This document shows, piece by piece, positions 1-3,433 of a stretch of DNA of 41,130 nt (position 1 is its first letter; each line of letters starts with the position of its first letter). The DNA is taken from the NCBI GenBank assembly GCA_964408055.1, contig CAYOXV010000003.1, forward strand, positions 1,437-42,566. Reading direction: 5' to 3'. This stretch comes from an uncultured Gammaproteobacteria bacterium (lineage in GTDB: Bacteria; Patescibacteriota; Microgenomatia; UBA12405). A program made the translations under genes and the position numbers. Under the pieces are notes generated by a model, which searched no databases, was not told the DNA's origin, and saw only the letters and a list, made by a program, of their open reading frames with translations.

Positions 1-254
1 AAATTCCTAGCTTCCACATATCGTCCATCTGCTGTGCCTGCTACCCTAAAATAAATCGATCTAAAATTATTTTTGTTAATTAATTCATCTTCTACCCAAA
101 CCTGAGTTTTTCCATTTTCTATTTCAAACTTTAAATCCCTATACAAAGCGACTTTAATCTCGATATTTTTCTTTTTACCTTCTTTCACTATTCTCCCCAC
201 TTCATACTTACTCTGCCCTTTCTCTCTTATTAACACCAATATCTTTTTATCCAT
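1..254 (-). CDS. RimK-like ATP-grasp ligase, N-terminal fragment (runs off the window edge)
   Basis: Not in the ORF track. The reverse complement from the ATG at 254-252 reads MDKKILVLIREKGQSKYEVGRIVKEGKKKNIEIKVALYRDLKFEIENGKTQVWVEDELINKNNFRSIYFRVAG... and stays open to position 1. It starts 3 nt after the stop of the upstream RimK-like gene, and its layout resembles the N-domain of that neighbour. Confidence 0.4.
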   Translation of the reverse strand, partial: MDKKILVLIREKGQSKYEVGRIVKEGKKKNIEIKVALYRDLKFEIENGKTQVWVEDELINKNNFRSIYFRVAGTADGRYVEARN

Positions 255-256
255 AA

Positions 257-1153
257 TTATTTTTTTAAACCCACTAAAAACTTAATTATTTCTCTTGGTA
301 CATCAATTCCAGTTGCCTGCATAAAACCTTTAAACTGTGGTCCTTTATTTACTTCCCATACCACTGGTTTTTTAAAATCATTATCTCTAAAAGCCACATC
401 TACTCCTGCCACCAACAAACCACAAACTTTCGCCGCCTTAGTCGCCATTTCTTTTATTTCCTCTGGTAAGTCAGCTACTTCCACCTTTCCTCCCATCGAA
501 TAGTTATTTCTAAATTCTTCTTTGCTTTGACTACTTCTCTTCATTATTCCCAACACCTTATCTCCCAAAACTAATATTCTATAATCACCATCATTTGGAA
601 TAAATTCTTGCAACATATATCGTCTCCCTTCATCAATTTCTGATCTTCTTAAATCTCTCACTAATTTTTCTAAATCTTTTTGGTTATCAGCTTTAAAAAC
701 TCTAGTTCCTCTATCTCCTCCACTCCCCTTTAAAATTATTGGAAAATCCATCTTGCCTTCATTCATTACTTTTAACAAATTCCATAAACTTCCATAAATA
801 GTCTTTGGGACTTCAATCCCTGCTTTTTTTAAAGCCAACATTTGATAAGCCTTACAAGCATCACTTGGTCGTCCTTTTTCTACTAATGGGTCAACAATTA
901 TTACCTTATCTCGATCAATTGTATCTAAAACCAAATTAACTTCTTCCCAATGTTTCCCTGTTGTTCTAAAAAACAAAACTCCATAATCCTCAATTTTTTT
1001 ATTTTTAATCTTTACTTCTTCTGTTTCCGTTTCATAACTAACATCGTTGTAAGAAATCAAATCTAAACTAACTTCCATTTTTTCAGCCGCCTTTCTTAAA
1101 AGAACCAAATGTCGGCTTAATTTACCCCCATAGAAAACTCCTATTTTTATCAT
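257..1153 (-). CDS. RimK-family ATP-grasp ligase (alpha-L-glutamate ligase-like)
   Basis: The 298-aa ORF has typical RimK size and layout, including GSGGDRGTRVF (glycine-rich loop), QEFIPNDGDYRILVLGDKVLG and AGVDVAF...VWEVNKGPQF (Mg/ATP site). Confidence 0.7.
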   Translation of the reverse strand: MIKIGVFYGGKLSRHLVLLRKAAEKMEVSLDLISYNDVSYETETEEVKIKNKKIEDYGVLFFRTTGKHWEEVNLVLDTIDRDKVIIVDPLVEKGRPSDACKAYQMLALKKAGIEVPKTIYGSLWNLLKVMNEGKMDFPIILKGSGGDRGTRVFKADNQKDLEKLVRDLRRSEIDEGRRYMLQEFIPNDGDYRILVLGDKVLGIMKRSSQSKEEFRNNYSMGGKVEVADLPEEIKEMATKAAKVCGLLVAGVDVAFRDNDFKKPVVWEVNKGPQFKGFMQATGIDVPREIIKFLVGLKK

Positions 1154-1161
1154 ATTTAATT

Positions 1162-2502
1162 TTAATTTAATTTATAAATATCTTTTTTTGCACTAACTAA
1201 AAATCCATCTAAATCCTTTCTTCCTAAAAGAAATTTCGTCCTCAATTTATGTCTATCAGCTACATTAACTGCTGTAGTAATTTTCTTTCCCTTAAGCCAA
1301 AAAGTTATTCCTATTACCGGTCTATCCTTCTTTTTACCTAAGGCCGATCGATAATGTCGATAATAAAGAATTTTATCATCAGTTAATAAACCCAAATCTT
1401 GGGCTAATTTTTGATCAATTGAACTTCTAAAAGCCCCAGTATCAATCTTAACTTTCACTTCCACAAAATTCTTTTTACCCTTCCCTAATTTTATTTTTAT
1501 ATCCTCCAATGGGCCCAATGTTTTTATCTTTTCTTTTTCTACCACCTTATCAAAGAAACTTTCTCCAAATAAATATTTAGCTAAAGTAATCGCATGTTCT
1601 ACACTTCTTACTTCAATTTCATCTATTTTTTCTATTCGTGATTTTAACCCTGCCTTGTTACATATTTGAATTGAAAGTCCTGGTCTAGCATTCACTTCCA
1701 ATACTTCTGGCCCCTTTTCTTTATCCAATACCACATCAACTCCCATAAACCCTAAAGTTGGAATTGCTTTTTGACAATTTATTGCCATTTCTAATATCTC
1801 TCTCCAAAAAGGAATCTTTATTCCATTAACCTTTCTATTCTTTTTCTTACCATAATCATAAATCCTTAAAATTGAATTTACTCCACCTTCAACTCCAAAA
1901 GTAGTAATTCCAGTTGCTAAATCAATTCCCAATCCAATTGCCCCTTGATGTAAATTTGCCTTTCCTCCAGACTTTTCTGTTGGAATTCTAAACATCGCCA
2001 TCACTGGCACATTATTATAAATAATTACCCTAATATCTGGTGTCCCTGCCTTTGTTAAAGCCAAAAACAAAGGATGAATCTTAATTCTTTCTTCTACTAA
2101 AACCTTATCTGGCATCGCGTGTAAACTATATCTTCCCGCCAAAATTTCCTGACAATGTAAATTTAAATCACTAGTAGAAACTATATTTCCATTCATTTTT
2201 TGCCATTCTCCCGCCCATTTTCCTCTTCTTCGAATAATTAAAATCCCCTCTCCGCCATAGCCTGATTCTGGTTTTATTACAAAATTACCCTCCAACTCTT
2301 CCCATTTAAATTTTTCTAAATCCTCACCTGTCTTAAATCTTTTTATTAATTTTGGAACCGTCACCCCATTTTTCATTAATATTTTTTTAGTCTTAAACTT
2401 ACTATCTGCAATAGTCTTACCTGCTGCTGTATTTTTTCTCAAATATACCTTATTCCTTTCATTCATAGTTAGAAATTGTCGGTATTTTTTTAACTTAAAC
2501 AT
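1162..2502 (-). CDS. ATP-grasp ligase (alpha-L-glutamate-ligase-related type) fused to a C-terminal retropepsin-like (RimB / 'ATP-dependent Zn protease' family) domain
   Basis: The N-terminal ~320 aa carry FVIKPESGYGGEGILII, TPDIRVIIYNNVPVMAMFRIPTEKSGGKANLHQGAIGLGIDLATG and GVDVVLDKEKGPEVLEVNARPGL. The C-terminal ~115 aa carry VKVKIDTGAFRSSID, a D-T-G-A aspartic-protease signature encoded at 1435-1443. Confidence 0.7.
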   Translation of the reverse strand: MFKLKKYRQFLTMNERNKVYLRKNTAAGKTIADSKFKTKKILMKNGVTVPKLIKRFKTGEDLEKFKWEELEGNFVIKPESGYGGEGILIIRRRGKWAGEWQKMNGNIVSTSDLNLHCQEILAGRYSLHAMPDKVLVEERIKIHPLFLALTKAGTPDIRVIIYNNVPVMAMFRIPTEKSGGKANLHQGAIGLGIDLATGITTFGVEGGVNSILRIYDYGKKKNRKVNGIKIPFWREILEMAINCQKAIPTLGFMGVDVVLDKEKGPEVLEVNARPGLSIQICNKAGLKSRIEKIDEIEVRSVEHAITLAKYLFGESFFDKVVEKEKIKTLGPLEDIKIKLGKGKKNFVEVKVKIDTGAFRSSIDQKLAQDLGLLTDDKILYYRHYRSALGKKKDRPVIGITFWLKGKKITTAVNVADRHKLRTKFLLGRKDLDGFLVSAKKDIYKLN

Positions 2503-2539
2503 ATTTATTTTTAATTATTTACTATCTAAATCCAAAACT

Positions 2540-3421
2540 TTATTTCTTTTTTTCTCTTATAGCACCCTTAAATCTTTTTATTTCCGACAATCTCATCCCC
2601 TTATAATTTCCTACTAATAAATTTATTACTAAAACTAAAATCACCACCATCTCAGGATATTTCAAAACCACTCCTTGAAGCCAGTCAAAATTCATCATAA
2701 TTGCCCCAGTAATTGCCAAAATTATTGTCCCTACTGTTAATTTTTTTGCCTCTCTTTTACTCTTTACCAACTGAGTTCTAGTAAATTCTTCTGTTAAAAG
2801 AATCATGAATAAGATCGGGAAAATTGAAATTTGTCTAATATCAATTAATCTCACAAAGGAAGAAGCAATCATTAACAAAAAAGTTCCCAAAGAAATAAAC
2901 AATAAACTAATTGCTCTAGCTGGCCAAAAATGTATCTTTAATTTTCTTAAAACTAAACTACTCAAAACCGATATTAATAAAATCATGGCAAATAAAACCA
3001 ATCCTCCAAAAATACCCGTCGCTATGAAAGCAATTGCAATCATTGTTGGCATAAAAATTCCATAACCCGATAACCCCCCCATGTAATGTAGTACCGATAT
3101 TAAAGTAGCGATCAAAGGCAATAATAATAGTAATACTATAGTATTACTAGCTACTCCTCTGTTCATGGCCCGATTAATCAAAATTTTTAAACCATTAAAA
3201 CCATTCCATCTTTCTTCAACTTTTACTTCTACTGTTTTTATTTTATCTTCTACCAAATTACTTTTAACCTCTTCTATGGTTGGGACTAAAGTTGGAGAAA
3301 TTGTTGCTGTTTGGCTTGCTTCAGTAGGAGTAATCGCCCTAATTGGAACAGCTCTTACCAAGACAATACTTAAAATTAAAAAACAAAAACCAAATACTGA
3401 TAAAAGGGCAGCTTTTTTCAT
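2540..3421 (-). CDS. Polytopic membrane protein, 7TM type usually found with ATP-grasp/RimK-like ligases (no transglutaminase-like domain here)
   Basis: The 293-aa ORF has an N-terminal signal/anchor, a ~60-aa extracytoplasmic segment and then about 7 hydrophobic helices. It is the first gene of the ATP-grasp operon. Confidence 0.5.
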   Translation of the reverse strand: MKKAALLSVFGFCFLILSIVLVRAVPIRAITPTEASQTATISPTLVPTIEEVKSNLVEDKIKTVEVKVEERWNGFNGLKILINRAMNRGVASNTIVLLLLLPLIATLISVLHYMGGLSGYGIFMPTMIAIAFIATGIFGGLVLFAMILLISVLSSLVLRKLKIHFWPARAISLLFISLGTFLLMIASSFVRLIDIRQISIFPILFMILLTEEFTRTQLVKSKREAKKLTVGTIILAITGAIMMNFDWLQGVVLKYPEMVVILVLVINLLVGNYKGMRLSEIKRFKGAIREKKK

Positions 3422-3427
3422 ATTTCT

Positions 3428-3433
3428 ATTATA
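3428..3433 (-). promoter_or_regulatory. -10 box (TATAAT) 6 nt upstream of the ATG of the 7TM gene; leaderless-type promoter
   Basis: The minus strand reads C-TATAAT-AGAAAT-ATG. No Shine-Dalgarno sequence is present. Confidence 0.5.

Follow-up and report, generated by a model that had tools for sequence, protein, structure and literature searches.

At the left end of a 41,130-nucleotide stretch of DNA (hereafter the window; positions 1,437 to 42,566 of contig CAYOXV010000003.1 in GenBank assembly GCA_964408055.1, C3:1437-42566 in our numbering) lie four genes that we consider, with somewhat better than even confidence, to be the Microgenomatia form of the Rlo system, operating through the membrane-based ligase-protease mechanism proposed below. 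Sequence comparison identifies gene 1 as a homologue of the seven-transmembrane (7TM) module of RloB, gene 2 as a homologue of RloC joined to a retropepsin of the RimB/RloA kind, and genes 3 and 4 as members of the RimK family. As inferred here, these proteins most likely build an acidic chain, probably alpha-glutamyl, at the membrane and trim it. The genome (596 kb in 44 contigs, 89% complete) belongs to an ultrasmall member of the Patescibacteria, class Microgenomatia, Shapirobacteria-like, and the operon is real and conserved.

In Pseudomonas aeruginosa, rloA encodes a secreted retropepsin that cuts runs of at least eight glutamates (Lormand et al., 2025, mBio, PMC12239564), rloB an inactive transglutaminase fused to a 7TM module, and rloC a cytoplasmic ATP-grasp protein; a triple rloA protease mutant, which dies at low osmolarity, is rescued by deletion of rloB or rloC (PMC12239564). 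Residues K46, R114, and R137 of RloA are needed for polyglutamate cleavage, R114 and R137 being essential for complementation as well, and the system as a whole influences osmotic tolerance and cell shape in Pseudomonas, together with biofilm formation and sensitivity to antibiotics (PMC12239564). RloB was reported to be 96% proteobacterial (PMC12239564). In the related Rim system, RimB trims glutamate tails made by RimK and stimulates the ligase, and natural RimB-RimK hybrids exist (Little et al., 2025, JBC, PMC11957791). An earlier note, made from the letters of the window alone, had linked the four genes to neighborhoods of RimK, alpha-L-glutamate-ligase-like, 7TM, and retropepsin proteins, and profile and structure-database matches uphold this link. 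Its further statement that such clusters were predicted by comparative genomics only has been overtaken, since the proteobacterial rloABC genes were characterized genetically and structurally in 2025 (PMC12239564).

The features of the operon, in window coordinates, are as follows.

2540..3421, minus strand: gene 1, RloB-like 7TM membrane protein of 293 amino acids (PF14402)
1162..2502, minus strand: gene 2, ligase-retropepsin fusion of 446 amino acids (PF14397, TIGR02291, and PF05618)
1567..2502, minus strand: N-terminal part of gene 2, RloC-type ATP-grasp, residues ~1-312 (PF14397, TIGR02291)
1162..1527 (stop codon included), minus strand: C-terminal part of gene 2, RimB/RloA-type retropepsin, residues ~326-446 (PF05618)
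1435-1443, minus strand: catalytic D354-T355-G356 (DTG) of gene 2, translation checked
257..1153, minus strand: gene 3, RimK-family ATP-grasp ligase of 298 amino acids (PF08443)
3..254, minus strand: first 84 codons of gene 4, second RimK-family ligase, which continues left of the window (294 amino acids when complete)
3428..3433, minus strand: perfect TATAAT -10 hexamer, candidate leaderless promoter, 6 nt upstream of the gene 1 ATG

The open reading frames (ORFs) agree with the earlier description of four co-directional genes separated by 2-37 nt: positions 3-3421 are filled by four minus-strand ORFs, and the gaps between genes 1 and 2, 2 and 3, and 3 and 4 are 37, 8, and 2 nt, respectively. 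Profile searches sustained all four of the domain assignments made beforehand (7TM protein, ATP-grasp::retropepsin fusion, and two RimK-like ligases), and the active sites of the three ligases were found intact, the catalytic residues being both present and conserved in alignments of orthologues.

Gene 1 matched the 7TM_transglut family (PF14402) with 84.8 bits against a cut-off of 25, which confirms a polytopic 7TM protein as first described and adds to it an N-terminal signal-anchor helix besides the 7TM module. From its N-terminus, the protein comprises this anchor helix, a disordered ecto-linker of ~65 residues, the 7TM module (residues ~92-271), and a basic, amphipathic, cytoplasmic C-terminal helix. 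Residues 92-285 are colinear with residues 309-501 of an RloB-type protein of Legionella (28% identity, 1e-17), a reference annotated as 'inactive transglutaminase family protein', and the C-terminal motif GxYxGxRLxExxRF is common to the two. The RloB model NF052267 was matched by its C-terminal 7TM part only (60 bits, cut-off 900), and neither a transglutaminase nor a PKD ectodomain was detected in gene 1, where just the disordered linker precedes the 7TM module. By the positive-inside rule, the C-terminus and the conserved segments E211-S221 and G271-F284 would face the cytoplasm. The AlphaFold2 (AF2) model has a predicted local distance difference test score (pLDDT) of 84, rising above 90 across the membrane part; despite this confident model, no solved fold resembling the 7TM module was found in the PDB (best E 0.39, TM-score <=0.28).

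The N-terminal part of gene 2 matched PF14397 (ATPgrasp_ST) with 215.9 bits and, over residues 7-304, TIGR02291 ('alpha-L-glutamate ligase-like') with 267.6 bits, without reaching the equivalog cut-off of 314.2. Residues 10-312 align with the Legionella 'alpha-L-glutamate ligase-like protein' (RloC) at 39.6% identity (1e-51). Within this domain, the ATP-grasp lysine K77, the residues G84 and G86 of the Gly-rich loop, and the Mg ligands D256, E269, and N271 are invariant in both the Microgenomates and the phylum-wide alignment. The AF2 model (pLDDT 87.2) consists of an ATP-grasp body, lacking a pre-ATP-grasp domain of the RimK type, and a beta-rich C-terminal domain, and its top Foldseek matches were D-Ala-D-Ala ligases (Ddl), RimK, cyanophycin synthetase, and ArgX/LysX.

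The C-terminal domain was recognized by PF05618 ('Zn_protease', RimB-like retropepsin) over residues 376-430 (27.6 bits), and PF05618 and other retropepsin models together cover residues 345-430. Searched directly by sequence, gene 2 had no match in the PDB, and a profile of the retropepsin domain was needed; this profile retrieved the RloA structures 9G59 (6e-8) and 9G58 (3e-7), followed by Ddi1 and the Rickettsia retropepsin ApRick. In the profile alignments the segments K-x-D-T-G, 'RPVI', and 'VNxxDR' line up between gene 2 and RloA, so that K46, D48, R114, and R137 of RloA correspond to K352, D354, R394, and R417 of gene 2, with the same spacing of 23 residues between the two arginines in both proteins. 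T355 and G356 are invariant in both alignments, and D354 is found in all 74 Microgenomates sequences, whereas one of the 18 phylum-wide sequences has Asn in its place; K352, R394, and R417 are invariant or nearly so. A genome-wide search found this domain to be the sole retropepsin of the genome. Since it is fused to an ATP-dependent enzyme that has no signal peptide, any trimming by this protease must happen in the cytoplasm.

Gene 3 matched PF08443 with 109.4 bits and TIGR00768 with 140.8 bits, marginally under the cut-off of 143.4, and its best PDB matches were RimK structures (5e-18). Its residues K142, R192, D252, E267, and N269 are kept in 59 orthologues. Gene 4 is cut by the left edge of the window, and the fragment alone gave a weak Rimk_N match only in a profile search. 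Directly left of the window, 100 N stand between two identical 55-bp copies (C3:1282-1336 and window positions 1-55; region C3:1282-1491). This gap is a scaffolding artefact, an unmerged k-mer overlap that splits gene 4 artificially. When the overlap was collapsed, the 84-codon fragment joined a 215-codon ORF in frame; extension of the contig leftwards, as the earlier note had suggested, thus completes an intact fourth gene of 294 amino acids once the duplicated 55 bp are merged. The completed gene 4 scored 113 bits with PF08443 and 147.1 bits with TIGR00768, over the same cut-off, and the corresponding Lys, Arg, Asp, and Glu-x-Asn residues persist in 39 orthologues. Genes 3 and 4 are 43% identical to each other, a likeness confined to the C-terminal 159 amino acids, and no similarity was detectable between their N-terminal domains. 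The genome encodes no ATP-grasp protein of this kind besides the three ligases of the operon.

More than 7,900 database relatives of gene 2 were found; the best 120 are 73-100% identical, and among these the named sources are Candidatus Shapirobacteria or Woesebacteria. Around two close relatives of gene 2, the same four genes occur at four loci (two near-identical pairs). In a sample of 80 species-level Microgenomates loci (44-79% identity), the 7TM gene was followed directly by the ligase-retropepsin gene at 74, the other six loci being cut by contig ends, and one to three RimK-like genes came after the pair at 62 of the 74. Of the four genes, gene 2 is conserved best, with a mean identity of 62.7%, compared to 51.5% for gene 1, 46.1% for gene 3, and 39.5% for gene 4. 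Across the phylum, the 7TM gene was immediately followed by the ligase gene at all 20 loci drawn from different families, and every one of these 20 ligases carries a retropepsin-like domain, including five that were outside the training set of the hidden Markov model (E 1.6e-18 to 1.2e-5). Synteny in relatives, on which the earlier reading had depended, is therefore evident both for the operon in Microgenomates and for the core pair in the diverse loci. Judged by coordinates, 23 of the 69 genomes that have the PF14402 family carry RimK-family genes no farther than ~10 kb from the 7TM gene. We take the invariant core of the system to be the 7TM protein and the ligase-retropepsin fusion, with the RimK paralogues as lineage-specific add-ons. 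In one complete Microgenomatia genome (L020:5159-6579; G003:C1:699682-701039), the RimK-like genes contain in-frame stops beside an intact 7TM-ligase pair, which fits the view that they are dispensable accessories. Two qualifications of the earlier reading apply: the system is accessory rather than universal (PF14402 in 69 of 201 sampled Patescibacteria genomes), and its RimK-like genes are add-ons.

The two core proteins vary in their outer domains among Patescibacteria. Five of the diverse ligases, ~790-800 amino acids long, carry an added C-terminal MATCAP/QEGLA metallocarboxypeptidase (PF08014, 3.6e-56; TIGR02421). These triple fusions of ATP-grasp, retropepsin-like, and MATCAP domains are encoded at L009:8811-11195, L013:8870-11272, L018:8754-11108, L025:9043-11418, and L026:8822-11218, and at least 518 protein clusters, from Peregrinibacteria, Gracilibacteria, and other groups, show this architecture. 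No MATCAP domain was found in the genome of the window, and a literature search returned no description of an ATP-grasp-MATCAP fusion. Most patescibacterial RloB-like proteins are 500-560 amino acids long and have an N-terminal PKD domain and ~170 unassigned residues with no inactive transglutaminase (L007:7287-8813 and L008:8267-9829; also L010, L011, L013, L015, and L017). The RloB-like form is ~300 amino acids long in the class of the window, where the ectodomain has apparently been lost altogether, and ~225 amino acids in one family.

Considering these components together, we propose the following mechanism. The ligase would dock on the 7TM protein, at its conserved cytoplasmic face and basic C-terminal helix, and there attach amino acids to a growing chain or an acceptor carboxylate at the expense of ATP; the likeliest amino acid is alpha-linked L-glutamate. 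Dimerization of the fused retropepsin would bring two ligase subunits together, and the protease, in the manner of RimB with RimK, would cleave the acidic chain and so determine how long it becomes or set it free. The two RimK paralogues, with their unrelated N-terminal domains on the substrate side, probably prime this product, or extend it, on acceptors that differ, and the 7TM protein may export, anchor, or regulate the synthesis of that product.

An acidic substrate is supported by the alignment of the Lys and Arg residues that RloA uses for polyglutamate with K352, R394, and R417 of gene 2. No stretch of six or more Asp/Glu residues is encoded anywhere in the proteome, so any such acidic substrate would have to be made by an enzyme. 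A partnership of ligase and peptidase is supported by the MATCAP fusions of other lineages and by the suppression of RloA loss through loss of rloB or rloC. Only five ORFs of the genome end in Glu-Glu. One of them (G000:C11:856-1383, minus strand) encodes a 175-residue protein with three topoisomerase-type zinc ribbons that ends ...GEEFLPPEE; as pure speculation, it loosely resembles the LysW-type carriers, which are extended by RimK-family ligases.

Several points weigh against an Rlo-type assignment and the mechanism attached to it. The TIGR02291 score lies under the equivalog cut-off, and the ectodomain of RloB is absent. One divergent lineage (L022, L023) does not conserve K352 and R417. 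How the two domains of gene 2 are oriented toward each other is poorly modeled, the linker of residues 317-325 having a pLDDT below 50 and the predicted TM-score (pTM) being 0.68. The protease is cytoplasmic here and secreted in Pseudomonas, so the two systems may handle the product differently. Finally, since the 7TM fold has no solved relative, export, anchoring, and sensing are not separable as roles of gene 1.

The only serious rival is a modification of the cell envelope, in which the ligases act on a lipid- or sugar-linked membrane precursor, such as the stem peptide of peptidoglycan or a surface glycopolymer, the 7TM protein serves as flippase or acceptor platform, and the retropepsin edits the product. 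We regard this as possible, yet unlikely. It draws on the Pfam label of the ligase family ('sugar-transfer associated ATP-grasp'), on the presence of D-Ala-D-Ala ligases among the closest folds, on the extracellular PKD domain of most patescibacterial RloB-like proteins, and on the phenotype of Pseudomonas rlo mutants, whose defects in shape, in sensitivity to beta-lactams, and in survival under hypo-osmotic conditions led the authors to suggest a possible role in peptidoglycan homeostasis (PMC12239564). However, Foldseek gives Ddl and RimK equivalent scores, the fused protease keeps the Lys/Arg residues with which RloA binds polyglutamate, and no conserved glycosyltransferase, Mur, or lipid-carrier gene stands beside the pair in the 20 diverse loci. 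The recurrent neighbors in these loci are instead yebC and ruvC, directly upstream at 9 and 10 loci, dnaN at 5, and dnaA at 4 (e.g., L007:3147-7153). Such neighbors apparently reflect position near a presumed replication origin and not function, and a pair situated there points to stable vertical inheritance rather than to a mobile island.

A bolder version of the acidic-chain function sees the module as a self-contained, membrane-docked synthase and depolymerase that makes, in the cytoplasm, an alpha-oligoglutamate of defined length, or a mixed acidic peptide to which three different ligases contribute, and exports it through the 7TM protein as a surface polyanion or osmotic buffer for these wall-dependent, host-attached, ultrasmall cells. 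In it the fused protease would be a molecular ruler and not a scavenger, and the sister forms with MATCAP would be prokaryotic precursors of the eukaryotic 'tail code' of ligases and carboxypeptidases. Taken as a whole, we consider this combination rather improbable.

It is less probable still that genes 3 and 4 are ordinary glutamyl ligases of ribosomal protein S6 standing beside an unrelated 7TM-ligase pair, a housekeeping alternative already raised in the earlier note and here put to a comparison of S6 tails. In its favor, genes 3 and 4 are RimK-family members whose closest relatives of solved structure are RimK proteins, this genome's S6 has a single Glu at its end, and 20 sampled genomes with no 7TM protein carry RimK-family genes as well. 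Nevertheless, the S6-ligase equivalog PRK10446 gave 69 bits with gene 3 and 74.5 bits with gene 4 against a cut-off of 331, and RimK-like genes follow the pair at most of the Microgenomates loci counted above. The S6 protein of this genome has 97 amino acids, of which the Pfam domain takes up residues 7-95, and ends ...LILKKE, with no tail. The comparison covered the S6 genes of ten Patescibacteria (L109-L118), a small sample in which the members of each group are related to one another. In four other Microgenomatia that have the same ligases beside the 7TM gene, S6 is 94-95 amino acids long and ends VKVS, VKSS, RKEK, or KSTK; in five Patescibacteria with a canonical RimK (PF08443 ~1e-60), it is 115-130 amino acids long and has an acidic tail (...KEEKEEDNE, ...ATESEEK, ...SDRDKE, ...EEVKEEE, and ...VETEEEE). 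Acidic tails went only with canonical RimK, a clean contrast, and on this comparison we rejected S6 modification: S6 is no conserved acceptor for genes 3 and 4, nor are these RimK-like ligases ordinary S6 modifiers.

An ATP-grasp, a protease, and a membrane protein are also the typical trio of a pathway for ribosomally synthesized and post-translationally modified peptides (RiPPs), graspetide-like, or for a secreted signaling peptide, in which the ATP-grasps would modify an encoded precursor, the protease mature it, and the 7TM protein export it, with neighboring pilins as possible substrates; this was rejected as highly improbable because no small ORF that could serve as precursor lies in or beside the operon and graspetide maturase models scored 25-37 bits against cut-offs of 312-475. 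A six-gene array of VirB2-like pilins does lie divergently adjacent to the operon, and this adjacency recurs at 42 of 82 Microgenomates loci; however, all of these are Shapirobacteria-level relatives and none of the 20 diverse loci that keep the 7TM-ligase pair shows it, so that a functional link was rejected in favor of clade-level synteny. Anti-phage defence was likewise rejected, genes 1-3 having no PADLOC matches.

As to expression, the earlier suggestion of a leaderless-type promoter at 3428-3433 is plausible and fits the pattern of the genome. A TATAAT hexamer stands 5-9 nt 5' of the start in 41 of 483 ORFs of at least 150 amino acids, with a peak at 6-8 nt and counts of 0-4 at other distances, and because of this genome-wide enrichment a leaderless-type start at gene 1 is plausible. 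A consensus scan upstream of the gene 1 hexamer found no -35 element, and no Shine-Dalgarno-like sequence precedes any of the four operon genes. Leaderless transcription appears, from these sequence patterns, to be common in this genome. On the other side of the operon, 39 nt downstream of gene 4 and left of the window, a small-multidrug-export/VTT-like gene (L001:150-611, minus strand) encodes a 153-residue membrane protein of PF06695 (4.5e-37); it was rejected as a fifth operon gene, since it follows the cluster in only 7 close relatives.

Two further observations concern the distribution of such genes in the databases. Many metagenome-assembled genome (MAG) records that contain this Microgenomates operon are titled 'uncultured Gammaproteobacteria' or 'Pseudomonadales' (e.g., L028, L030, and L031), and one (L081) is titled 'Candidatus Bathyarchaeia archaeon'; these titles are probably placeholders or mis-binned labels. 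An RloC-like ATP-grasp gene (36% identity, 2e-33) is present on the haloarchaeal plasmid CP007061.1 of Halobacterium sp. DL1 (106119-107006), and PF05618 matches were also obtained in the control genomes of Haloferax volcanii and Methanosarcina acetivorans, so that Rlo/Rim-type modules extend to the Archaea.

Should the Rlo assignment be correct, the patescibacterial form would be a natural minimal version of the system and would constrain models of it. The fusion of protease to ligase indicates that cleavage of the chain need not be extracellular, and the ectodomain of the 7TM protein would be dispensable, placing the conserved function in the 7TM module and its cytoplasmic face. In addition, the repeated fusion of the ligase to two unrelated kinds of peptidase suggests that a cycle of making and trimming is the core logic, and S6 can be ruled out as a target in this class. 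The occurrence of the 7TM family in about one-third of sampled Patescibacteria, bacteria with few accessory pathways, suggests a real physiological role. The small fusion protein would also be a convenient reagent for finding the product.

Neighborhoods of ATP-grasp, 7TM-inactive-transglutaminase, and peptidase genes were reportedly predicted by Iyer, Abhiman, Burroughs, and Aravind in 2009 to serve peptide synthesis or tagging, in mainly proteobacterial architectures, and both PF14397 and PF14402 are said to originate from that work. A literature search found no description of the patescibacterial form. Its closest counterpart is the rloABC operon of P. aeruginosa and P. fluorescens, with which it shares the same three modules in one operon (the 7TM part of RloB at 28% identity, the RloC ATP-grasp at ~40%, and a RimB/RloA retropepsin) as well as the DTG motif and the polyglutamate-binding Lys/Arg residues of RloA. 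The canonical order is seen on the Legionella adelaidensis plasmid NZ_LR134414.1, where a 152-residue retropepsin, a 508-residue RloB, and a 314-residue RloC follow one another. In contrast, the order here is B and then C::A instead of A-B-C. The protease forms the C-terminal portion of a cytoplasmic ligase fusion, whereas RloA is a separate, signal-peptide-bearing, secreted protein. The RloB-like protein has its short linker, and in most Patescibacteria a PKD domain, in place of the inactive transglutaminase ectodomain; two RimK-family ligases are added; and the curated equivalog cut-offs of RloB and TIGR02291 are not reached.

The RimABK and RimBK systems of Pseudomonas fluorescens and Desulfotalea psychrophila resemble the operon in pairing a RimK-family alpha-L-glutamate ligase with a cytoplasmic retropepsin, and in RimBK a hybrid of ligase and protease occurs naturally and is proteolytically active. 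However, the protease of RimBK lies N-terminal to a true RimK, while here it lies C-terminal to an RloC-type ATP-grasp (PF14397/TIGR02291) devoid of a pre-ATP-grasp domain. S6 in this class lacks the acidic C-terminal tail that Rim targets, and Rim has no membrane partner comparable to the 7TM protein. By analogy only, the arrangement also recalls the tubulin tail code, in which an ATP-grasp 'writer' of an acidic tail (TTL/TTLL) is opposed by a peptidase 'eraser' (MATCAP/CCP); sister patescibacterial lineages fuse the same ligase to the MATCAP family PF08014, whereas the present genome has neither a MATCAP domain nor tubulin. The type of system is a known one, reportedly predicted in 2009 and characterized in Pseudomonas in 2025, and the operon described here is, on sequence grounds, a compact patescibacterial variant of the Rlo/Rim systems.

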